Position numbers and translations under genes: made by a program. This document shows, in pieces, positions 2 through 11,043 of a DNA stretch of 13,491 nucleotides. A model generated the notes under the pieces. The model had not been told where the DNA came from. It saw only the letters and a program-made list of their open reading frames with translations, and made no database searches. The stretch comes from an uncultured archaeon (GTDB taxonomy: Archaea > Thermoproteota > Bathyarchaeia > Bathyarchaeales > Bathycorpusculaceae). Location: assembly GCA_963782915.1 (NCBI GenBank), contig CAWALK010000010.1:1-13491 (forward strand), given 5' to 3'. The stretch's first letter is position 1; each line of letters starts with the position of its first letter.

Positions 2-190
2 CAAGCAGTCGCTGAAGGCGGAGATGTCGACAGCGCAATCGCCCTACTCAACGGCTTAGATGCCTCCAACGCGCCAGGTGCAACAATGCCCATAATATTC
101 TACCCGATCGTCGGAGTTACAGCTGCAATAGCCGTACTATTTGTGGTTCTCTTCATGAGAAGCCGCAGCAAAGTCAGCTACTTCACCTAG
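2..190 (+). CDS. 3' part of a membrane-anchored hypothetical protein (5'-truncated by the window edge; may continue by frameshift to 299 or 310)
   Basis: Frame 2 is open from base 2: QAVAEGGDVDSAIALLNGLDASNAPGATMPIIFYPIVGVTAAIAVLFVVLFMRSRSKVSYFT*, TAG at 188-190. It has one clear TM helix followed by RSRSK. A protein-like amphipathic continuation EDQIKDLEGLTMRAAKIDRAMSANLDSVKDRLK follows in another frame (195-293). Absent from the ORF track. Confidence 0.7.
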   Translation, partial: QAVAEGGDVDSAIALLNGLDASNAPGATMPIIFYPIVGVTAAIAVLFVVLFMRSRSKVSYFT

Positions 191-302
191 TCGTGAAGAC
201 CAAATCAAAGATTTAGAAGGATTAACAATGAGAGCAGCTAAAATCGACCGTGCAATGTCAGCAAACTTGGATTCAGTAAAAGACCGCCTAAAACATTAGT
301 TG

Positions 303-310
303 GGATGTGA
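303..310 (+). promoter_or_regulatory. Shine-Dalgarno-like site (GGATGTGA) for the tubulin-like gene
   Basis: 7/8 match to GGAGGTGA, 6 nt before an ACG codon (317) that is in frame with the tubulin-like ORF, just after in-frame stops TGA-TAA at 308-313. Confidence 0.45.
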
Positions 311-316
311 TAACCT

Positions 317-3018
317 ACGAGAATATACCAAAACAGCGTACAACTGATTGGGCTAGGTTCAGCGGGTACAAACATCGTTGAATCCTTCCTCGTCAACAAA
401 AAAACAAGGGAACTCATCGAAAACGACTTAACCCGTCTTTCCCTTTTAGCCATAGACATAGCTGACCCCGAAATCCGCAGCCTACAAGAAACCCATGATC
501 AAATCTCCAAAGCCCTCATTAAAGCTGGGATTCCGCGGGAAAGATGGCGATTAATCGCTGAATCCGTAAAATTCCCAACAGCCGAAGCCATGTTCGATTT
601 CATCAACCAAAAATACGGTGAATACGTAATCGGCGAAGGCTCAAAACTTGAAAATTATACTCCATGGCTCCAGTCCACTATGGCTGTTCCTCCGATGGCC
701 GGCGGCGCAGGACGCAGACGAGCTCTCGCAAAAGCAATCTACGCCCTGAACTATTACCAACTCGGCATCATCAGAAACTGCATTAACTCCTTCAAAGAAC
801 AGGCCCTATCCTCTATCGTTACCCCAACAGTCGTGTTGGTCTATGGTATGGGTGGTGGCACTGGAAGCGGCATATTCTTTGATTTCGCCCGTCACATGCG
901 AAAGGTGCTGGGTTCAGGAGTACCTATGATCGCGTTCGTTATTACGCCATGTGGTGGAGATGACCCTCCAGCGAAAGGCTGCTCAGCATTCACAGCCATG
1001 AACGAACTCTCACTGCTGCTTAACAAGGATTACAATGAGCACGTCACCAAAGTGTACGGCGAAATCTACCGCAACCCACTCAACGCACTCGTCTATTTAC
1101 CATTGCTTCCAGCGTTCTCCAAAGTAGGCAACATCGTGTCTGCCAGAAAAGAAATGGATGACATGGTCGTTGACCTGCTTTATGTTTTGATGGATTTTGA
1201 CTTAGCAGACCTCTTAGGCGGCATCGGCACAGAAGTCGGCTTAACCAACAATTCAGCGCACACATTGGGCATGATTAAAGTCATGTACCCAGTCGATGAT
1301 TACCTAGCAGCATACAAGCTAAGCTTCGAGGGCATGCAGCTACTCCAGGAATCACGCAAAGAAAAACTCAATATACTCGATGAAATCAAAAATATCATCA
1401 AAGTAGACAGCGACGTCACACGCGAATTATTCAAGAATTACCTAATCAAAACAGGAACATACAACGAAGACCAATTCGACGAAAAACTAAAAACCATCGT
1501 CAACAGCAACCCACGCCTCGAAGACGACGTCGAATTACATGTCAAAGGCGTCGAAATCCAAGTGAAAAATTGGCTAGACGACATAATGAAGTTCCTGCAA
1601 ACCATAAAATTAATGGGCAAAATCGGTCCAATCGAAGAAGCCATCATCAACTTAACACTTAAAAAAGATGACTCACGAAAACTAGACAACCTCGAAACCC
1701 TACTAACCACCCTCACCAAAACACACCTCGAATTCTACGAGAGCAAAGCAGTCATCCTCGAACGACTAAACCAATTAATCCCAAGCTCACAAATCTTCAC
1801 ATTACGCCAAAAGAAAATCCTCCAAGACATGGTAAACATCTCCGAACTCGCCGAACAAACCCTCAAACTACTCAAATTCTACGATGAAACACGATACATA
1901 ACAGACGCCCTATACGCTACTACGAAGTTCTCCCCGAATGCCAAGCTGAACTCCAAGAATTACATGACATCCAAGACGAACTCGGCACCGTTTACCTCTT
2001 AATCCAGTTAATGCTCCGAACACCACCAGACGAAGCAAAAATGATCGATGAACACTTAACATACATCAGCGAAATCCTCGCTAAGCGTATGCAGAAACGC
2101 GGCAGCTTCGACAACGAAGTCATGCGTGTCATGGAAGTCAAGAAACGCAAAGAATTCGACAAAACCAAGATGGAGCGTCAAGTACGCAAATTCTTAAGCT
2201 CCAAACGCTATGCACGCGAACAACTCCTCGGACTCGACCGCGACTTGCGAAGAATCGCTGAGGAAGAAGCCATCGCAATGGAAAACCTCGACAAAGTCGA
2301 TGCAACAATCAAACTCTACGAGAAACTTGCTAAACGATTCGAATTAACATCTGACTACCGCAAACGCCTCAACAAAATCGTCGATGCCCACCACGAATAC
2401 ACCGCCAAAATCGCAGAGATAGTTGCGCCTAAACGTTACTTCGAGAGAAACGCAGACTTAACCGAGAAGGAACAATTAAAAATCGTCTTCAAAATCTTAA
2501 CCGAACAAGAAGACACCCTAACACGCGAGGTTATCTTCAAAGATGTCTTCGACATGGACCACTTCAAAGACTACATAAAAAGCGTTGTCCGCAGCTTCAA
2601 AACCCCAAGCGTCATGGGTTACAAGCCAACGTATAAAACCGATTACATCTGGGTAACCGTCACAACACCTCCAAAAATGTGGACTGAGGACATGTCTCAG
2701 GAAGTCTACACTGCCCTCGCAGGTTACGTTACCAGCGAAGTCTCAAGAACCATCACAGTGCGTGTTGTCGAATCAAGAGATGCATGGACAACCCGAGTGC
2801 TCGTAGTCGGTGGACGCGGCAGACCCGAAGACATGGAAGCCTTCGACGAAATGCAGAACCTCTACAGCAAATCCAACGACTTCGAACGCTACCTCTCACG
2901 ATCATTCCTACTCGAACACGGCGTACACGCAACAAACATCATCAAACAAGTCAACCAAGAAAACGGCTACGCACCAACAGCCACCAACGGCAACGGCAAC
3001 AACAAGAAACAAGCATAG
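317..3018 (+). CDS. Large tubulin/FtsZ-superfamily GTPase with long helical/coiled-coil region (Tubulin_2/FtsZl-like), ~900 aa, frameshifted near 1912; joins track ORFs 590..2002 and 2011..3018
   Basis: The frame of ORF 590 is open from 314 and encodes QNSVQLIGLGSAGTNIVESF (T1 loop) and LLAIDIAD (T2) before the called ATG. It then has GGAGRRRALAK (T3), YGMGGGTGSG (T4 signature, 845-871) and DFDLADL (T7-like, 1193-1213). The frame of ORF 2011 is open from 1888 and reads IRYYEVLPECQAELQELHDIQDELGTVYLLIQL from 1912; restoring one base at CTA(A)TA joins the two. The true start codon is uncertain. Confidence 0.85.
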
Positions 3019-3060: not shown

Positions 3061-4632
3061 TTATTCAACCTTTTGAGTTTTAGTTTTGCGCGTTCGCTTT
3101 GGCTTCTCGGTTTGGGCTGCTTGGGTTTCTTCTGGTTTAGGTTTTGCTTTTTTGGTTCTTGGAGTTCTTTTTGGTTTTGTAGGTTTCGGTGATTCGACTA
3201 TTTCTGGAGCTTCGATGGCTGCAGGTTGCGCTTGGATGTTTGTTGTTTCGATTGGGCTTTCTGTACTTACTGTTATTGCCGATTCAATAACTGGTGTTGG
3301 TTCTGGTACTGGGATAGGTGCTACCTCGACTGGCTGCGGCATCTCCATTGTTACCATTTGCGGAGGTTCTATCGGGGTGGGCTGAGCTGGTTCTGGTGTC
3401 TGTGGCTGCTGTGGAATAGGCAGTTCTTCGGGTTTTGCCTGCTCTGGAATAAGTAGCTCCTCTGGTTTTGTCGGCTCTGGGGTTGCTGGTGCCTCAATAA
3501 CGTCTGGTTCCTCCTCAACTTTAAAGGGCAATTGCCAATCCTCAGTCATAAAACCCCTCTCAACCGCTGCACTTTTAAGCGTCGCAACTTTCGTCTCCAA
3601 CTCCTCAAACATTTTGGAGATATCAAATCCGCCGATAAATAGCACTGCGTCGATGCGGTCACTCATGTCTTCTGTGTAGATAGGTTCGGATATGTGGATG
3701 GATTGGGGGCTGGTTTTTTCTTTGAACCAATCTGTTATTGCTAACTCAATTTTTGCCCTGGGAATCTTATCTTTCAAGTTGGCGGGCATGCGCAGGAGTA
3801 CGTAGAGTAGTTTTGAGCTGGATAAGTCAAAGGTTGAAAGTGGTTTTAGCAGGGCAGTGTCGAGCATATTCTCAATGGAGCCATATACACGATAACTGGC
3901 TGCCGTAAATGCTACGGCGCTGAAGAGTTTAACGTTAAAGGTGCGGGATAACTCGCTGATTTCCTGCACAAGCGACTCCTTAGCTAAGAACATGCTGAGC
4001 ATGTAATTGACTATGCTGTTGCCCTTGATTTGAACGCCACTCTTGTCTACGCCTTCAAAAGTTTCAAGTTGGTCTCTGCCTAAAAGCACAACTGTGGAGC
4101 CTTCAGTTGCCAAGCATAATTGCAGTGTGGCGTAGGCGTTGAAGTGGGCGTCTGCTGGTTGAATTTGTGATGGCAAAACAGCTATGGAGAGTGAATCGAT
4201 GCTTTGCCTGTTAAATTTGCTTATTAGGCTTGGTAGGGCGGCGCTGCCAACTCCATCCCAGGCGGAAGCGAAAACTATGGCTCCCCTTAGCCTCTCTGCT
4301 GAGCGCTTCTTTAAACTATCAATAACCGACTTGTCCCGAATGATTGTTGGCAATACATTGTACCAAAAGTGAGTGTCAATGTCTGCATCTTCAAAACCCA
4401 ACACCAAATGCGGCTCATAACCTTTCGGTATCCATTTGTAGATGTCATCGCTTGATTTTTCAATAAAAATCGGCAACGTACCATCTCTACTAACGGTTGG
4501 CTCTCTTAGCAGCGCCTTTATTGGGTATTCACCAATACAGACGATAGCTTGTTTAGGAACCAGAGGTTTTAGCCCTTCGATGTGTTTTTCGATGCTAACT
4601 AGGATGTTAAAAGCGTTTTTGCTATCCTTCAT
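3061..4632 (-). CDS. Divergent tubulin/FtsZ/CetZ-fold protein with degenerate GTP-binding motifs and Pro/Glu-rich plus Lys/Arg-rich C-terminal tail (523 aa)
   Basis: Motif order follows FtsZ/tubulin: AIVCIGEYPIKAL (T1 position), IVFASAWDGVGSAALPSL (T4 position, cf. AGLGGGTGSGAAPVI), SIAVLPS (T5), AHFNAYATL (cf. tubulin EPYNA), TVVLLGRDQL (cf. IVIDNDKL), ENMLDTALLKPLSTFDLSSSKLLYVLL (cf. ALxxPLLDVDISGAKGALV), and DRIDAVLFIGGF (final strand). The last ~150 aa are low complexity. Alignment by eye. Confidence 0.75.
   Translation of the reverse strand: MKDSKNAFNILVSIEKHIEGLKPLVPKQAIVCIGEYPIKALLREPTVSRDGTLPIFIEKSSDDIYKWIPKGYEPHLVLGFEDADIDTHFWYNVLPTIIRDKSVIDSLKKRSAERLRGAIVFASAWDGVGSAALPSLISKFNRQSIDSLSIAVLPSQIQPADAHFNAYATLQLCLATEGSTVVLLGRDQLETFEGVDKSGVQIKGNSIVNYMLSMFLAKESLVQEISELSRTFNVKLFSAVAFTAASYRVYGSIENMLDTALLKPLSTFDLSSSKLLYVLLRMPANLKDKIPRAKIELAITDWFKEKTSPQSIHISEPIYTEDMSDRIDAVLFIGGFDISKMFEELETKVATLKSAAVERGFMTEDWQLPFKVEEEPDVIEAPATPEPTKPEELLIPEQAKPEELPIPQQPQTPEPAQPTPIEPPQMVTMEMPQPVEVAPIPVPEPTPVIESAITVSTESPIETTNIQAQPAAIEAPEIVESPKPTKPKRTPRTKKAKPKPEETQAAQTEKPKRTRKTKTQKVE
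3413..3470 (-). repeat. Imperfect 33-bp intragenic tandem duplication (KPEELLIPEQA / KPEELPIPQQP)
   Basis: GGAATAGGCAGTTCTTCGGGTTTTG (3413-3437) and GGAATAAGTAGCTCCTCTGGTTTTG (3446-3470), offset 33 bp (11 codons). Confidence 0.65.
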
Positions 4633-4647
4633 CCGAGGTACCTACAT

Positions 4648-4682
4648 AAGCTTTAAGAGGCGTTCACATGAAATAAGGTTTT
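4648..4682. promoter_or_regulatory. Overlapping divergent BRE/TATA-like promoters
   Basis: Plus-strand AAGCTTTAAG (4648-4657) is ~40 nt before TTG 4694. Minus-strand AAAACCTTATTT (4682-4671) is ~40 nt before ATG 4632. Confidence 0.5.
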
Positions 4683-4693
4683 AGGTTGATTGC

Positions 4694-7105
4694 TTGAAGA
4701 AGCCCTCCTTGAAACTTTCTGGATTAAGCAGTTGGAATAAAGACCGAAAACAGAAAAGTAAAGAGAAGGAAGAACGGGAACGCCAAACCGAAACACAGAC
4801 ACTTAGAATGTTCACTTTCGTTGTTACACTTATCGCTATGGCGTTAGGTATGTCTTATCTGCCGCTTTTCCCGCAACCACTGCCTATACTACTGGCTGTT
4901 TTGGTTGCTTTTGCCACATATCAGAAGCCACGATTTGGCATGCCTGTGGGTGGAGCAATCCTTGGTTTAGGTTTAATGTTCCATTTGGCTCAGTTATACT
5001 TCATCTCGTTCCTCGGCGACACACCCGTGCGTGTGGTATTCATCGTTGTTTGGATGACGCTGTTTGTAGTTATGCCCTTAATGTTTAACCGCTACAAAAG
5101 CGCACTCGCGGTTGATTTTGGTATTTTGGCTTTTGTGATACTTTTCTTTGCCCCAGCCTATTTTATGGCTATTCCGCTGATTTTGGCTTCAGCGGTTTTC
5201 TTCAAAAAATACGTCGGCTTAACCGTCGTTTACTATGTGCTGCTTTCAGTGCCGCTTCAGCTTATGCAGTATTACCAATACACGGTTATGGCGATTGAAC
5301 GTTCCGATTGGTGGGTTGAAGTCGGTTCTGCTCCGCCAGTGTTTGTATCGCTCAGTAACATTGCTGGCGACTTAACATCCTCAATGAACCAGTTCCGACT
5401 CTATGACACTTCCAAAGTAATCTATGACATTGCTGGTCAAACCACTTGGACTCCAGATTGGGCTGGACGCACAATCAAAGATGCCCTAACCCAATACGTT
5501 GACTCGATTCCAGGTATCCTCATGTTCGTAGTAATTGTTGCTGGGCTTGCATTGGCACTTATCTTCTTTGGAAGAATGCTAATCAAAGAAGGTTTGATTG
5601 GTAACGGCGACAGATTATTCCCATGCTTCACAGCAACCATTGCCGCAGCATTATTCTTCATACTGCTGGATGCATTGCAGACCCCATTGGCGTTCACTGC
5701 GGAAGTGGGACCAGTAGCGATGGTGCTGGGCATATTAGGAACAGCGCTTTTGACACTGCCCGTATTGTTCATGGATTACACTCCCAAGAATCGTGCGACA
5801 AACCAGCAAATCACCGAAAAAGCACAAACACTCCTAAACAAAGTATTGGGCTTTGAAGACCAACTGGAAAATGTGAAAGCGAACATACCAGTGATCGTAA
5901 GCTCGCCTGAAGGCAAAACGCTTGTCCTAAAAGACTCCATCCAAGACATCCTCAAAAGAGCATCACTCAAAGAGTTCCAACAGCAAGAATTAGACGACAA
6001 ATACAACGAACTCGACAAACTCGGCAAAGACAATGAAGCCCTAGAAGCCGAACTTAACACAATTCTTGGGGAATACCAGATTTTCTCAAGCTGCGAATTC
6101 GCTAATTGGATTGGAAAACTCAAAGCAGCAGGCTTAGACGTCAAAACAACCGTGAAAGTTGAGTACCAAAAAGAGATGCCGCTTGAACAACGCATCGAAG
6201 CCATCAAACAAGTCATCGTTGCAGGACGTGAACTCGTCAAAGAAGTCTCATCAATTGCTGAACCCATCTATGGCATCATTCGACCACTGTATGATCCAGC
6301 ACTGCCAGCAAAGAGTTACGCCGTCGAGTTTGCGGCAGATAAGATCGCTAAGAAGGAAGCGCCATGGATCGCCGTTGAAGCACTCTTCAATGCCCTAAAC
6401 AACTGGAAACGCCAATACGGCTTAGACATACAAGCAACCATGAAATACCTGCAGAATTCGCTAAAACCCATTGCACGCTTAAGTAATCAAAGCGAGGTTT
6501 TGCCATCCGTTTTCGGCGATAACACCTCTAAAGTGCTTGGTTACGCGAAGAATGCTGAAGGCATGCGCCTAATCGCTGAGAAAAGAGCAGAAAAAGACGA
6601 AGACAAAATTGACCTCCAAGACGTCGTCGCATTGAAAGAAGACGTTGAAGGCTTCATAGCAATGTCAAACGATATCCTATCAATGCTCTACACGGGCATG
6701 GTCAGCGACGAAGAAACCATCGACCGATTACTACCCACAAAAGATTACCTCTGGGAAAAGAACGGTTCACTACGCGAACGCCTCGAGCAAGCAACAGGGA
6801 TGCTCTCAAACCCATCGCAGTACAAAATCAACGAAATCATGGCGAATCTGCCCAAATACCTCGGTTACATCGACGAATCAGTGCAGACATTGGCGCTTTA
6901 TGCAGAACGCAAAGAATTCCTACTCAATTACCCATTAGCGGAAGCAGCCATCAACGAGCAACTTAAAGTCAAGGAGAAGTTGTTGCCTTCTGATTTGCCA
7001 TTCCAGCCACGATTCGCAGCTGAATACCTAAGGCTATACTATGCCACACGCTATGGCGAATACATGTATGACAAGGAAACCTTAGTGCTGACAAAAAGAC
7101 CATAG
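4694..7105 (+). CDS. Hypothetical polytopic membrane protein: about 10 TM helices plus ~440-aa soluble helical/coiled-coil C-terminal region (803 aa)
   Basis: Long uninterrupted ORF with a charged N-terminus. Seven hydrophobic segments, an ~80-aa loop and three more segments are followed by heptad-like E/K/Q/L-rich helices (ELDDKYNELDKLGKDNEALEAELNTIL). No catalytic motif recognised. The TTG start is uncertain (alternative ATG 4808). Confidence 0.85.
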   Translation: MKKPSLKLSGLSSWNKDRKQKSKEKEERERQTETQTLRMFTFVVTLIAMALGMSYLPLFPQPLPILLAVLVAFATYQKPRFGMPVGGAILGLGLMFHLAQLYFISFLGDTPVRVVFIVVWMTLFVVMPLMFNRYKSALAVDFGILAFVILFFAPAYFMAIPLILASAVFFKKYVGLTVVYYVLLSVPLQLMQYYQYTVMAIERSDWWVEVGSAPPVFVSLSNIAGDLTSSMNQFRLYDTSKVIYDIAGQTTWTPDWAGRTIKDALTQYVDSIPGILMFVVIVAGLALALIFFGRMLIKEGLIGNGDRLFPCFTATIAAALFFILLDALQTPLAFTAEVGPVAMVLGILGTALLTLPVLFMDYTPKNRATNQQITEKAQTLLNKVLGFEDQLENVKANIPVIVSSPEGKTLVLKDSIQDILKRASLKEFQQQELDDKYNELDKLGKDNEALEAELNTILGEYQIFSSCEFANWIGKLKAAGLDVKTTVKVEYQKEMPLEQRIEAIKQVIVAGRELVKEVSSIAEPIYGIIRPLYDPALPAKSYAVEFAADKIAKKEAPWIAVEALFNALNNWKRQYGLDIQATMKYLQNSLKPIARLSNQSEVLPSVFGDNTSKVLGYAKNAEGMRLIAEKRAEKDEDKIDLQDVVALKEDVEGFIAMSNDILSMLYTGMVSDEETIDRLLPTKDYLWEKNGSLRERLEQATGMLSNPSQYKINEIMANLPKYLGYIDESVQTLALYAERKEFLLNYPLAEAAINEQLKVKEKLLPSDLPFQPRFAAEYLRLYYATRYGEYMYDKETLVLTKRP

Positions 7106-7275
7106 TTGGGGCTCATTTGTGATTTTTTCTCTATCCCCCTTATTTATAGGCTCAATGAGTGTGGTGCTTTTTGTTTAGTTTGTCTACGTTTGTTGACGCT
7201 GTTTTGTAATATTGGGTGGTTTGCATGGGGGTTGTTCTTTTTTCTGTGCAGTTGCCGCCGTTTAACTCAGGGCAT

Positions 7276-7992
7276 TCAAGCCACTGCTTTTTGTGATTCT
7301 ACCCCAACCAGAACAGGGAATAAGTCTCTATCCAAAACTACGATTTGGCGAGCATCCACGAAAAAGGCAGCTAACGGCGCATACGTTTCAGAGTACATCA
7401 ATCTCATCTCTACAACGTAGCAATCCGTGAAGTTGAAGTCATACTCCCATTCTGTCATTTGGTAGCCTGATTGGTTTTTGTAATAGAATTGCATATTGCC
7501 GCTACTTAGAAGAACCGAGCCATTGGGGGTTGATTTGACGATTGTGGTATTATGCCAAGTCACGCCTTGGGGTGCGGGACTATTGTAAATTCGAAACTGT
7601 GGGTACTCTGTTACGTTTGCTTCATAGGTTAGCTCTATCTGTTTAGGGTCTCCCTTTCCCTGAAGATTGTTATACCTTGTTTCGTAGTAGCCCAAAACTT
7701 CTGAGTCGATAAAGTTCGCGTAAGTATATACTAAGTATGTACCTGGATGAAGGTAAGCTTCGGGGTCACTTGAACCATCAAACCGCTCTAATGTAGAAAT
7801 AGCGGTATAGTTGATAGATTCGGCTGCTGTAAGTGCGCTTTCTTCTTTCGGGTTGATGAAATTTCGGTTAATGTTTTTCTCATATTTTTCGGACGCTTGA
7901 GGCTGTTTCAAATTCAACATAGCTATCGATGTGACGACTAAAACTAAAACTATTATGCCTACCGCAAGCATCAGGATTAATTTTTTACGCAA
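7276..7992 (-). CDS. Hypothetical secreted or N-terminally anchored protein (238 aa)
   Basis: MRKK plus a hydrophobic helix (LILMLAVGIIVLVLVVTSIAML), then a Y/T/N-rich beta-type domain with several N-x-S/T sequons (NYT, NVT, NTT, NGS, NQS, NFT). TTG start with GAGGGT upstream. Confidence 0.8.
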   Translation of the reverse strand: MRKKLILMLAVGIIVLVLVVTSIAMLNLKQPQASEKYEKNINRNFINPKEESALTAAESINYTAISTLERFDGSSDPEAYLHPGTYLVYTYANFIDSEVLGYYETRYNNLQGKGDPKQIELTYEANVTEYPQFRIYNSPAPQGVTWHNTTIVKSTPNGSVLLSSGNMQFYYKNQSGYQMTEWEYDFNFTDCYVVEMRLMYSETYAPLAAFFVDARQIVVLDRDLFPVLVGVESQKAVA

Positions 7993-8029
7993 CTCGCCTG
8001 ACCCTCAGTTACAGGTTATTAGCATTTGA

Positions 8030-8039
8030 ATTTAAAGCT
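8030..8039 (-). promoter_or_regulatory. TATA-like box for the 7992 gene
   Basis: Minus-strand AGCTTTAAAT about 40 nt upstream of the TTG at 7992; same motif and spacing as other promoters in the window. Confidence 0.45.
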
Positions 8040-8175
8040 ACACTTTAGAACGGACCGAGCTGTTATGTTTTTCTTGCTTTTCTAAAACTTTAGACTGGTT
8101 CGTTTCTTTATTTCCTCATGTTGTTCAATTAGGTAACATACTTCCTCGCACCGTGGACTGAAGCGTATTTTCTTT

Positions 8176-8226: not shown

Positions 8227-9081
8227 ATGACAGAATCCCAAGATGTAACTAGGAATGATTTCTCTTTTCTTATTCGGCGAAAACTTCAAGGTAAGGTATC
8301 GAGGTTATCGTCAAAATTTGGTTGGCGAAAGTTTGACCCAAAAGACTTCAAAACTGAACACCAGGCAATTGTTGTTCCTTCCTTAGCCCCTGATTTTCAC
8401 GACTACAAAATCGTACATATCAGCGATATCCATTATGGACAATGGATTTCTGTTGATCGGCTCAGAGGGGTTGTTGATCTCATCAACCAAATTGACCCTG
8501 ACATTGTTGCAGTAACCGGCGATTTTGTTTCATATTTGCTGAATGATAAAATGGAGGACGAAATAGTAGAGCAGCTTAGTAAATTAAAGCCAAAAGACAC
8601 TGCCGTTGCAGTTTTAGGCAACCATGATCATTGGGCAGGTGCTGAAAGGGTTCGCGATATTTTGAGAAAGAGCAATATCTTGGACATTAGCAATAGTGTA
8701 TTTGAGGCATCGAAGTCAAACTCCAAATTAATTATTGCTGGAGTTGACAGCGTAATGCTCAAGAAAGATCGGTTGGATCTTGTTTTAAAAAAAATGCCTG
8801 CCGATACTCCCGCAATTCTGCTGGTTCATGAGCCAGATTTTGCCACTAAGAGTGCAGCCACCAAACGGTTCAGTCTGCAACTGTCAGGGCATTCGCACGG
8901 AGGCCAATTTGTCATACCAAAATTAGGAACACCCATCAGAGGAAACCAATTCATGAAATACCCACTAGGTATGTACAAGGTTGAAGGAATGACACTCTAT
9001 ACTAACCGCGGTTTAGGAACAAACAGCTATTGGCTGCGCATAAATTGTCCCCCCGAAATAACGGTGATCACTTTATTGTGA
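8227..9081 (+). CDS. Calcineurin-like metallophosphoesterase, YkuE/YaeI-like (284 aa)
   Basis: All five motifs present in order: HISDIH, TGDFV, LGNHDH, LLVHEP, LSGHSHGGQ. C-terminal YTNRGLG...LRINCPPEITVI is typical of the YkuE group. Confidence 0.93.
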   Translation: MTESQDVTRNDFSFLIRRKLQGKVSRLSSKFGWRKFDPKDFKTEHQAIVVPSLAPDFHDYKIVHISDIHYGQWISVDRLRGVVDLINQIDPDIVAVTGDFVSYLLNDKMEDEIVEQLSKLKPKDTAVAVLGNHDHWAGAERVRDILRKSNILDISNSVFEASKSNSKLIIAGVDSVMLKKDRLDLVLKKMPADTPAILLVHEPDFATKSAATKRFSLQLSGHSHGGQFVIPKLGTPIRGNQFMKYPLGMYKVEGMTLYTNRGLGTNSYWLRINCPPEITVITLL

Positions 9082-9090
9082 GGTATATTC

Positions 9091-11043
9091 TTGGTTAAAC
9101 ATGTAAAGCGAACAATCGCACAATTTCTTCTCTTTGCATTAGCAATTTATTTGATATCGTTTGTTACACCAGGCCTCTATATTAGCAACTTTTTCTCAGG
9201 ATTGCTTTTCACCATGTTGTCTGCGTTCTTGATTTTTCTTCTTTGGCCTCTACTTTTGAGGTATCTGGAGCGATTTCTGGTTTTAACTTTTGGATTGGGC
9301 TCTTTTGTTTTAAGTACACTTATTTTGTGGTTGGGCAGTCTTTTGATTCCGGGTGTAACGATTAGTGGTTGGGGCTGGATATTTGCCCCTATAACCGTCG
9401 CCGTTGCTAGTGCGATTGTTACTGTGGTTCTAAATATTGACGACGATGACGTTTACGCTCGTTCAGTCTACTCCCATCTTAAACGTCGAACAGACAAGGG
9501 TAAACTCGAAAATAAAAATGGGAAGCCAGGGTTCGTTTTCTTGGAAATTGACGGTTTATCCGAAGCAGTTCTTAGGCTGGCAATAGATAAAGGCAAAATG
9601 CCCTTCCTCGCCGATTTAGTCAACAAAGGTAGTCATACGATTAGAGGGTGGGAAACCGATCTTTCCTCTCAAACAGGTGCAAGCCAAGCAGGCATACTTC
9701 ACGGTTGTAACAAGGATATTCCTGCTTTTCGCTGGGTAGATAAATCCACTAACAAAATAGTTTCATCAAACGGTATTGGCGATGCACCCATAATTCAAGC
9801 CCGAATTTCTAACGGTAACGGGTTGCTCTCAGCTAATGGCGGAGCAGTTACAAATCTCTTCACAGGCGACTCCAAAGACAATATTTTTGTGTACAGCGTT
9901 GTAAAAGATATCAAGCAATTATACAGTGAATCATGGACAGCATTCTATACTAGACCCTACAATTTTGCAAGGGTTTTCTTGCTTTCATTATTAGACATGA
10001 TTCTTGAAGTCAGGTCTCGTTATAGACAGTGGCGGCGGGATATTCAACCCAGACTTCACCGCCGTGGACTAAAATACTTCATTGGGCGAGCAGGAGCAAA
10101 CGTCATTCTAAGAGAAATAAGCACCTACATCTTAGTGGGCGACATAATCGCAGGCGACAAAGACGTAGTTTACTCTACATATTTCGGTTATGACGAAATC
10201 GCCCATCACTGCGGAATAACTGACGCAGAAAGTTTCTACGCTTTGCAAAAGCTTGACCACAGAATAAGCAGAATCTTTGCCGCACAAAAATATAGCAAAA
10301 GACCCTATAACATCTGCATTCTTTCCGATCATGGGCAAACAAATGGCGCCACATTCAAGCAACGTTTCGGTTTAAGCTTAGATGAACTCGTCAAAAAACT
10401 CTTGCCTGAGAAAGAAACAATCTACCACGAACTAGATTCAAATCAAGATCATTTCTCCCAAATGATAACCGCTCCCAGCGATACAGTTAACCGCAAACTA
10501 AAACCGCACTCTAAAGAGAAAAAACAAAAAAACGCACAAGCCATCGTTTTAGCATCAGGCAATCTTGGCTTGATTTACTTCACCCGATGGCCCCAGCGAA
10601 TGACCTTAGAGGAAATAAATGCAGTTTACCCCGAAATGGTTGAAGGCCTAAAAAATCATGAAGGGGTAGGGTTCATTATGTTAAGATCAAAAGCAGATGG
10701 CCCAATAGTACTGGGGAGAAAAGGCACGTATTACTTGAATAGTAATAAAATTGAGGGTGAAAACCCATTGGAGAAATTCGGAGAACACGCTGCCGCGCAT
10801 CTTTTGAGAACTGATAGTTTCCAGTTTTTGCCTGATATTTTAGTCATGAGTTTATATGACTCTGAAAAAGATGAGGTTGCTGCTTTTGAGGAACTCATAG
10901 GTAGCCATGGTGGGTTGGGAGGCGGTCAGTCTAAACCATTCATTATGTATCCATCTGAGTGGCGTTTGGCTGAGGATGAAATTGTTGGGGCTGAGAGTGT
11001 CTATAAAGTATTCAAGCAATGCATGGAGAAATCGACAGGGTAA
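9091..11043 (+). CDS. N-terminal 4-TM phage-holin-family (YvlD-like) domain fused to an alkaline phosphatase/nucleotide pyrophosphatase-superfamily domain (650 aa)
   Basis: The first ~115 aa are hydrophobic with holin_4_2-like TPGLYI and LTFGLGSFV motifs. AP-superfamily metal/nucleophile motifs follow: LEIDGLS, SSQTGASQAGILHG, YDEIAHH, LSDHG, GSHGG. TTG start 9 nt after the upstream stop, with GAGGT overlapping that stop. Confidence 0.88.
   Translation: MVKHVKRTIAQFLLFALAIYLISFVTPGLYISNFFSGLLFTMLSAFLIFLLWPLLLRYLERFLVLTFGLGSFVLSTLILWLGSLLIPGVTISGWGWIFAPITVAVASAIVTVVLNIDDDDVYARSVYSHLKRRTDKGKLENKNGKPGFVFLEIDGLSEAVLRLAIDKGKMPFLADLVNKGSHTIRGWETDLSSQTGASQAGILHGCNKDIPAFRWVDKSTNKIVSSNGIGDAPIIQARISNGNGLLSANGGAVTNLFTGDSKDNIFVYSVVKDIKQLYSESWTAFYTRPYNFARVFLLSLLDMILEVRSRYRQWRRDIQPRLHRRGLKYFIGRAGANVILREISTYILVGDIIAGDKDVVYSTYFGYDEIAHHCGITDAESFYALQKLDHRISRIFAAQKYSKRPYNICILSDHGQTNGATFKQRFGLSLDELVKKLLPEKETIYHELDSNQDHFSQMITAPSDTVNRKLKPHSKEKKQKNAQAIVLASGNLGLIYFTRWPQRMTLEEINAVYPEMVEGLKNHEGVGFIMLRSKADGPIVLGRKGTYYLNSNKIEGENPLEKFGEHAAAHLLRTDSFQFLPDILVMSLYDSEKDEVAAFEELIGSHGGLGGGQSKPFIMYPSEWRLAEDEIVGAESVYKVFKQCMEKSTG

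Follow-up and report, generated by a model that had tools for sequence, protein, structure and literature searches.

A diverged tubulin/FtsZ-superfamily protein with a remodelled nucleotide pocket, encoded beside an FtsZl1-like GTPase in Bathyarchaeia

Introduction

Proteins of the tubulin superfamily are defined by assembly driven by guanosine triphosphate (GTP). What would a member do that has given up the signatures of its nucleotide pocket? The question is raised by one gene in the stretch of DNA analysed here (the window), which is an entire contig (C10, 13,491 bp) from a Bathyarchaeia genome assembled from metagenome data, 3.28 Mb in size and 93.5% complete. This gene, an open reading frame (ORF) at 3061..4632 on the minus strand, encodes a protein of 523 amino acids (aa), referred to as P0001. 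The evidence favours, with moderate confidence, a reading of P0001 as a diverged tubulin/FtsZ member that serves as the non-catalytic subunit of a membrane-associated assembly around an FtsZl1-like GTPase. The genes concerned would add a cytoskeletal module to Bathyarchaeia, an abundant group for which a literature search found no cytoskeleton study.

The P0001 gene

3061..4632, minus strand: the whole P0001 gene (523 aa), comprising a tubulin-like domain, a disordered linker and a basic C-terminal peptide (ORF list and translation).
3508..4632, minus strand: tubulin/FtsZ-fold domain, aa 1-375; the fold itself covers about aa 24-368 in the order S1-H1...S6-H6-H7-T7-H8-S7...S10-H11.
3064..3507, minus strand: low-complexity linker rich in P, E and T, aa 376-523 (composition, end motif in orthologues, substitution ratio).

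The P0001 gene starts with ATG and its reading frame is intact. A first-pass annotation, made from the letters of the window, had given the span as 3520-4632; this is the right locus and covers the globular domain (aa 1-371), while the real ORF extends further, to 3061. The linker closes with the basic peptide KPKRTRKTK (aa 510-518, window 3079-3105). Orthologues were collected as the window copy plus 80 loci from species-representative genomes, and among these 81 a linker ending in KPKRxRRTKK is found in the closest ~30; at least about a dozen others carry N-terminal extensions of 200-295 aa with basic-aromatic motifs such as KKKGFFSFLRKK.

The database holds 795 homologues of P0001 at E<=1e-3. 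For the domain, two close comparisons give ratios of nonsynonymous to synonymous substitution rates (dN/dS) of 0.088 and 0.108; the tail gives 0.41. The number of homologues and the domain values of 0.09-0.11 show that P0001 is not a chance ORF. Nearly all of the 80 loci have an unbroken frame, and three yield partial matches only. The ORF is under strong purifying selection, and the earlier argument that an intact frame speaks against simple decay was borne out by the dN/dS check.

Superfamily membership and fold

P0001 itself matches 0 Pfam families at E<=0.1, and so has no PF00091 match above the gathering score; it has no NCBIfam match, and a phmmer search of the PDB returned nothing relevant. 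Over 1.84 billion cluster representatives, phmmer returned 108 matches. When the 39 full-length ones were scanned against Pfam, 26/39 matched PF00091 at E<=0.01 and 12/39 exceeded the 33-bit cut-off; the other 13/39, the closest relatives of P0001, match no Pfam family. A profile built from P0001 and its distant relatives reached CetZ2 (4b45, 1.1e-12), AtubB2, FtsZ, BtubB and TubZ in the PDB, and alignment of the wider family profile to 15 Bathyarchaeia FtsZ sequences by hhalign gave a probability of 97.2% (E 3.7e-11).

An AlphaFold2 model of P0001 was obtained with a mean predicted local distance difference test score (pLDDT) of 89.9 and a predicted template modelling score (pTM) of 0.87, and its elements follow the canonical order S1-H1 ... 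S6-H6-H7-(T7)-H8-S7 ... S10-H11. Foldseek returned at least 500 matches to the model at E<=1e-3, and those listed are all tubulin/FtsZ-family structures. The best is CetZ 3zid_A (E 1.4e-15, template modelling (TM) scores 0.66/0.68), CetZ1/CetZ2 reach a TM score of 0.74 by target length, and E values for CetZ, TubZ, FtsZ and tubulin range from 1e-15 to 1e-12. VIA-align superposed OdinTubulin (7evb) with Z 28.9 and a root-mean-square deviation of 3.3 Å over 327 residues; eukaryotic tubulin 7mwg_A (Z 28.4), BtubA 2btq_A (28.0) and CetZ 3zid_A (27.5) are effectively tied with it. The superpositions span 305-330 residues within model range 24-368. P0001 is thus modelled with a complete two-domain tubulin/FtsZ fold: a Rossmann-like GTPase domain, H7, the T7 loop/H8 and an S7-S10 C-terminal domain. 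An ESM Atlas feature search gave Tubulin/TubZ/CetZ clusters at 0.92-0.94, which is a lead only.

In a quick tree, the Bathyarchaeia P0001 orthologues form one clade (SH-like approximate likelihood ratio test (SH-aLRT) 98) on a backbone that is not resolved, and the FtsZ sequences group in a clade of their own, set off by a branch of length 3.2 (SH-aLRT 100); CetZ sequences were outside this tree. The canonical FtsZ signature, as found in the ~380-aa Bathyarchaeia FtsZ (GGGTGTG, NxDFAD and a strong PF00091 match), is absent from P0001. Remote homologues, profiles, the model and its superposition place P0001 in the tubulin/FtsZ superfamily, and the first-pass assignment passed the structure check.

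The nucleotide pocket

4522..4539, minus strand: T1 equivalent C32-I-G34-E35-Y36-P37, in place of GxGxxG (MAFFT, hhalign, orthologue counts).
4363..4374, minus strand: T3 region T87-H88-F89-W90, which replaces the glycine-rich T3 stretch of distant relatives (alignments).
4240..4260, minus strand: T4 equivalent W125-D126-G127-V128-G129-S130-A131, in place of GGGTG[ST]G; it lies inside the 4240-4266 given earlier.
4132..4143, minus strand: T5/H5 segment F164-N165-A-Y, part of 'LPSxxxPxDxxFNAY', common to CetZ/tubulin-like relatives.

The equivalence of the T1, T4 and T7 positions was drawn from MAFFT alignments to distant relatives in which GxGxxG and GGGTGSG are retained, from hhalign to FtsZ and from the model. 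The motifs quoted at first pass (CIGEYP, WDGVGSA and LVQEISEL) are all present where they had been placed. C-I-G-E-Y-P lies opposite G-V-G-G-A-G in the alignments, without the GxGxxG signature of T1, and T4 keeps 3/7 positions of its signature (G127, G129 and S130). Alignment by hhalign sets G34-E35-Y36-P37 on G-G-A-G of FtsZ and W125..A131 on GGGTGTG; in the model, aa 34 falls between S1 and H1, and aa 124-126 between S4 and H4. The canonical phosphate-binding signatures of T1 and T4 are gone from P0001, as had been claimed.

The residues that replaced them are highly conserved. In the 81 orthologues, G34 is kept in 79, E35 in 75 and Y36 in 78, and the T4 region shows W125 in 76, D126 in 68 (plus 7 with E), G127 in 80, G129 in 78, S130 in 79 and A131 in 75. 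Over 92 orthologues, G34, Y36, H88 and W90 are at least 90% conserved and [DE]126 and G127 are conserved too; W125 is found mainly in the window's own family. A second set of 13 orthologues, from a second GTDB family (f18) and 26-36% identical, keeps G34, Y36 and an H-[FY]-W-F motif and has an acid at position 126 in 13/13; E35 and W125 vary. When conservation was computed element by element over the 92 orthologues, as the mean frequency of the top residue, the pocket loops came out as the best-conserved parts of the protein (T1 0.88, T2 0.83, T5 0.80, T4 0.74), with most helices and strands at ~0.5-0.65. N165 is the sole invariant column of the alignment of P0001 with its distant relatives (A1), and is present in 81/81 orthologues.

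The description of this face as 'eroded' was therefore wrong: conservation mapping shows a pocket that is remodelled, with substituted residues that are themselves conserved across orthologues. Canonical phosphate-binding geometry is very unlikely in P0001, and the site is selected for something, be it a fold-stabilising plug, a binding surface or another ligand. With the GTPase fold present and its motifs lost, P0001 is a candidate pseudo-GTPase, and we infer a loss of GTP binding or hydrolysis.

The acidic residue at the T7/H8 position

3949..3972, minus strand: T7/H8 equivalent L221-V-Q-E224-I-S-E227-L, with E224 at 3961-3963 (model, alignments, orthologue counts).

In the model, the core helix H7 spans residues 206-217, followed by a loop (218-220) and H8 (221-232), which is the T7/H8 position; E224 lies on the first turn of H8. 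The profile of the zinc-ribbon relatives of P0001 (compared below), '..sdlvrlsrs', aligns to CetZ2 'VDTSEVINTLRS', and MAFFT puts E224 of P0001 in the 'd' column. Because this HMMER/MAFFT route via CetZ2 places it there, E224 is matched to the CetZ glutamate, the catalytic T7 residue (CetZ1 E218, FtsZ D212, alpha-tubulin E254). The hhalign alignment to FtsZ sets LVQEISEL on LDFADFRT in a register off by one, with I225, not E224, at the catalytic acid. E224 is likely the counterpart of the catalytic T7 acid.

The residue is almost invariant: 80 E and 1 D in the 81 orthologues, D/E in 13/13 of the second family and D/E in 94/94 genome-derived orthologues. The first-pass claim that acidic residues are kept at T7 holds for E224 and fails for E227 outside the closest family. 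A conserved T7 acid is a requirement of a longitudinal, tubulin-type contact onto a GTP-bearing face.

The partner GTPase and the gene module

317..3018, plus strand: partner GTPase gene (~900 aa), split by a frameshift at ~1909-1939 into 317-2002 and 2011-3018; likely start ACG at 317-319.
4694..7105, plus strand: 803-aa membrane protein, divergent from P0001; polytopic, with hydrophobic segments at aa 40-359 and then a soluble part of ~440 aa (hydropathy scan).
4633..4693, no strand: divergent intergenic region, 61 bp between P0001 and the membrane-protein gene, read from the sequence; putative promoter region.
2..313, plus strand: 3' end of a fourth conserved gene, encoding a single-pass membrane protein with the tail ...SVKDRLKHLVGM; frameshifted twice (~nt 195 and 296).

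The first-pass annotation had supposed a partner filament for P0001, and a candidate exists in the adjacent, tightly linked FtsZl1/Tubulin_2-like GTPase. The ORFs at 590-2002 and 2011-3018 are one gene, which forms a single frame of ~900 aa in 64/66 loci. The product matches PF13809 (Tubulin_2) at 52.7 bits against a cut-off of 27, and an intact 900-aa copy on contig C23 of the same assembly (P0230) scores 50.1 bits. Its layout is an FtsZ-like domain at the N-terminus, a long helical region, judged by eye to be a coiled coil, and a C-terminal domain. In 32 sequences the motifs of the N-terminal domain are invariant: T1 GLGSAGTN, T4 GxGGGTGSG (GMGGGTGSG in the window copy) and a T7-like MDFDLADL after a long helix. 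A model of aa 1-350 (pLDDT 70) matched FtsZ structures at E 2e-7. Scans of the window's genome with PF00091 and PF13809 found these module genes as its only tubulin-like genes. P0001 itself is not an FtsZl1 protein: hhalign of its degenerate clade (A3) against the partner N-domain (A5) gave a probability of 0.9%, with T4 alone aligned.

Members of the module are consistently encoded together. Of the 80 loci, 77 have the membrane protein, and 75 and 71 have the first and second half of the GTPase; the missing cases fall at contig ends or on short contigs. Among 151 evenly sampled Bathyarchaeia genomes the distribution is patchy, with P0001 in 20/151 and the GTPase in 24/151. P0001 occurs in two families: in its own, 4/15 genomes besides the window's genome, and in the second, 15/27. 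Both genes are present in 19/20 P0001 genomes, the exception being a 75%-complete genome with the gene at a contig end. In 18/19 of the genomes with both, P0001 and the GTPase are adjacent and convergent on one contig, and they are always adjacent when they have a contig in common. A homologue of the membrane protein is also present in the second family. Two genomes show a tandem operon form, in which the GTPase, a membrane-protein homologue (profile E 1e-15) and a zinc-ribbon tubulin-like protein whose motifs are fully degenerate follow each other on one strand with overlapping ends.

The fourth gene lies directly upstream of the one for the GTPase. Its product consists of an extracellular portion, a single transmembrane helix and, on the cytoplasmic side, a conserved tail ...VVEDQIKDLEGLTLRASKIDR...SVKDRLKRLVGM. 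The intact copy, 208 aa on contig C23 (L006 2944-3570), matches no Pfam family. P0001, the FtsZl1-like GTPase and the polytopic and single-pass membrane proteins form a fixed gene module. PADLOC, which had no match for the three module proteins, does not class the module as a defence system.

The partner gene appears to start at a non-canonical ACG. Its first conserved codon (the T of TRIYQNS..., window 296-330) is ACG in 55/67 loci and ATG in 5/67. In 56/67 loci there is no in-frame ATG, GTG or TTG from the upstream stop to this codon, and the next canonical start lies 7-91 codons downstream, within or beyond the T1 loop. The ACG is preceded at 4-5 nt by GGATGTGAT, a Shine-Dalgarno-like sequence. 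The fourth gene ends 4-7 nt ahead of the GTPase start in 60/66 loci, and given this spacing translational coupling is possible. A literature search on ACG start codons in archaea returned nothing relevant.

Two further observations concern the partner. A segment of P0230 at aa ~775-860 (window ~2640-2900), YIWVTVTTPPKMW...TRVLVVGGRG, resembles by eye the S8-S10 region of P0001, LLYVLLRMPANL...DAVLFIGGF, and hhalign found the same register at a probability below 1%; the idea that the C-terminal ~120 aa of the partner supply missing tubulin S8-S10 strands is unsupported, with this hhalign value and nothing by BLASTP. In another Bathyarchaeia family, locus L087 (G011:C6:66000-82000) encodes a 961-aa homologue of the partner GTPase (34% identity) that is followed by an Orc1/Cdc6 gene, with neither a pseudo-tubulin nor a membrane-protein gene as neighbour.

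Proposed role and alternatives

In the mechanism proposed here, P0001 would no longer bind or hydrolyse GTP in the canonical way. Most likely it would use its T7/H8 face to dock on the FtsZl1-like protein, at the face that bears GTP, and once docked it could terminate, seed or tune the polymer of that protein. The disordered tail, where present, would tether the complex to a polyanionic surface, for instance membrane or nucleic acid. Docking onto the GTPase is proposed because the conserved T7 acid suits a longitudinal contact and because the genome encodes no tubulin-superfamily protein besides P0001 and the GTPase.

Several findings weigh against this proposal. Taken by itself, the profile of the degenerate clade matches known structures weakly (AtubB2 at E 0.003, CetZ at 0.033) and aligns to FtsZ by hhalign with a probability of 0.4%, so that the sequence link depends on the relatives in between and on the structure model. 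The partner holds its own invariant T7-like DFDLADL; it may therefore polymerise or hydrolyse GTP without P0001, and a foreign T7 is not obviously needed. The metagenomic relatives P0142 and P0143 carry N in the E224 column, and E227 is invariant in the closest family only and lacks conservation in the second one. P0001 retains N165, D161 and P154-S155, the T5/H5 positions that line the nucleotide site in relatives, and the solved Asgard tubulin AtubB2 reads GDGTGAG at T4, with an acid at T4 position 2; residual ligand binding by P0001 is therefore possible. P0001 is convergent to the GTPase gene and not in the same operon, and its 61-bp upstream region is held in common with the membrane-protein gene instead. 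The C-terminal tail is missing in many orthologues, and many have neither tail nor N-terminal extension; the tail would be an accessory tether rather than the core function.

A serious rival to docking on the GTPase, with a substantial minority claim, is that P0001 acts as a scaffold or adaptor in which nucleotide plays no part. On this reading it would either assemble with itself or attach to the cytoplasmic portion of the 803-aa membrane protein, leaving the GTP site of the FtsZl1-like protein untouched, and E224 would serve another contact. The divergent pairing with the membrane-protein gene across 61 bp, the retention of the membrane protein in 77/80 loci and in the second family, and the partner's own T7-like motif all fit an adaptor. 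The near-perfect co-occurrence and adjacency with the GTPase gene fit it poorly, however, as does an acid conserved exactly at T7/H8, where a longitudinal contact would need it.

Somewhat less probable is that the remodelled pocket holds a ligand, either a permanently bound, unhydrolysed nucleotide, as in the alpha-tubulin N-site, or another small molecule. This would explain pocket loops that are the most conserved elements of P0001, and would suit the retained N165, D161 and P154/S155, the T4 residues G127, G129 and S130, and the precedent of AtubB2. However, 4/7 T4 positions (W125, D126, V128, A131) and 3/4 T1 positions (E35, Y36, P37) are now bulky, acidic or proline, and the glycine-rich T3 is replaced by THFW.

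A bolder variant of the docking proposal, which we consider improbable, is that P0001 and the FtsZl1-like GTPase form an obligate, membrane-anchored hetero-polymer, evolved independently of alpha/beta-tubulin, with one live and one dead site per repeat. In such a polymer, E35, Y36, H88, W90, W125 and D126 would fill the pocket as a plug and would offer the DFDLADL loop of the partner a face that imitates a permanently 'loaded' one. Nucleotide would have been dispensed with in P0001, whose E224 would fire the partner's GTP, and the filament would be anchored to the dedicated polytopic membrane protein.

It is highly improbable that the module replaces FtsZ as the division machinery of lineages that lost FtsZ. 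Canonical FtsZ was not found in the window's own genome, nor in G038, G114, G065, G030 and G036, giving six module-bearing genomes without it, and same-order genomes without the module mostly have FtsZ (45/61 above the cut-off). However, seven module-bearing genomes (G075, G141, G024, G042, G092, G100 and G104) carry one or two canonical FtsZ, and strict mutual exclusion of module and FtsZ is thereby rejected. The window's genome encodes CdvA (3 matches above cut-off) and a Snf7-like gene cluster, and the same-genus genomes G094, G102 and G133 (A4 profile) show neither FtsZ nor the module in searches. Because seven module genomes have FtsZ and the window's own has Cdv genes, the module cannot be read simply as a replacement for FtsZ.

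A decaying pseudogene or chance ORF, for which the missing Pfam and NCBIfam matches and the 1-nt indels of the C23 copy might speak, has next to no probability and is refuted by the conservation data, with dN/dS at 0.09-0.11 even against the indel-bearing copy, an intact ORF in nearly all 80 loci, a confident model, and indels spread over several genes of both copies as fits sequencing error.

Other features of the window

The window is 93-94% identical in DNA to G000:C23:139260-152000 (L006), a portion of a contig of 183 kb in the same assembly, and so is a second strain or a duplicated region. Both copies have 1-nt indels in different genes: P0001 is broken in C23 (gene nt 272 and 718), and the GTPase and the gene upstream of it are broken in the window. 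In those parts of the alignment that were inspected, the indels of both copies fall at short base runs, and the substitutions between the copies are mostly synonymous, which fits sequencing or assembly error rather than decay.

Positions 7109-8160 of the window have no counterpart in the C23 copy; a 238-aa ORF at 7276-7992 on the minus strand has an N-terminal hydrophobic segment (by eye) and no Pfam family. Further along, a 650-aa protein at 9091-11043 on the plus strand combines an N-terminal 'Phage_holin_4_2' region of four transmembrane segments with a type I phosphodiesterase/nucleotide pyrophosphatase domain, and a calcineurin-like phosphoesterase at 8227-9081 adjoins it. Among public sequencing runs listed with the window sequence there are DNA runs, with small word shares, and no RNA run.

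Comparison with known systems

The literature search, which covered the main texts of the relevant surveys, returned no account of the P0001 family, of its module or of a prokaryotic tubulin-superfamily pseudo-GTPase. Bathyarchaeia are not mentioned in the main text of an FtsZ/tubulin survey (PMC9871819) or in the main text of the preprint by Liao et al.

The nearest relatives outside Bathyarchaeia are zinc-ribbon tubulin-like metagenomic proteins (P0169-P0229), at 17-25% identity and phmmer E 1e-7 to 1e-22. Their alignment with P0001 extends across both domains, and they have the T5/H5 motif, the S10 motif 'SDRIDxxLLLGG' and the C-terminal helix in common with it. They differ in an N-terminal CxxH...CxxC ribbon and in that most keep GxGxxG and GGGTGSG. 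Many of those with intact GTP motifs are without an acid at the T7 column, and some with a degenerate T4 keep it, a pattern in the alignments that hints at a division of labour between paralogues.

Alignment and a quick tree separate the zinc-ribbon family (~420-460 aa; also L092) into three clades: one with intact T1/T4 and a basic T7 column, one with intact T1/T4 and D/E at T7, and one with a degenerate T4 (G-E-x-x-x-S-G). A locus search for these relatives with A6 found one 3.5-kb high-GC contig, which is without module genes, and locus searches with P0169 and P0178 singly found nothing. A search of 301 Thermoproteota genomes for zinc-ribbon relatives returned P0001 orthologues and ordinary FtsZ-like genes only.

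CetZ (3zid, 4b45, 4b46) resembles P0001 in several respects. It provides the best Foldseek matches of the model, comes first in sequence-profile searches with the wider family (4b45, at 1.1e-12 and 1.7e-14), and has the 'LP[SG]xxE/DxxxxxxNA' T5/H5 motif, the C-terminal helix after S10 and the T7 position in common with it. In contrast to P0001, CetZ keeps GxGxxG and GGG[TS]GSG and holds GTP or guanosine diphosphate in solved entries, going by entry titles. P0001 has no match to Pfam Tubulin or CetZ_C, and in Z its match to CetZ is tied with those to the tubulins.

The FtsZl1/Tubulin_2 family, to which the neighbouring partner gene belongs, is described by Makarova & Koonin (2010; PMC2875224) as having at the N-terminus a GTPase domain like that of FtsZ, then an extended helical stretch and a C-terminal domain. 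Their paper reports lineage-specific membrane proteins alongside FtsZl1 systems, for which it predicts membrane remodelling, operons with genes for a vWA-domain protein, an OmpA-like protein, a kinase or a P-loop GTPase, and a T6-H7 region that is not identifiable in FtsZl1 (PMC2875224). The Bathyarchaeia partner is likewise accompanied by membrane proteins. On that account it differs in its invariant DFDLADL after a long helix and in its surroundings, with no vWA, OmpA-like, kinase or P-loop GTPase domain among the window ORFs and membrane proteins without a family as neighbours. The literature search found no characterisation of FtsZl1 systems later than the 2010 prediction; P0001's partner, together with its dedicated membrane protein, offers a testable way into their function.

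Tubulins (7evb, alpha/beta, BtubA/B, AtubB2) gave the highest Z to P0001, within 1.5 units of CetZ, and AtubB2 is the best PDB match of the profile restricted to the P0001 clade. They differ in sequence, at 11-15% identity, and in arrangement: P0001 has no tandem A/B gene pair, and its partner is an FtsZl1-like coiled-coil protein rather than a second tubulin of like kind. The alpha-tubulin N-site provides one catalytically silent site per pair, to which the P0001 pocket is likened. P0001 would be a natural 'half-dead' subunit, akin to the specialised alpha-tubulin N-site or to gamma-tubulin caps.

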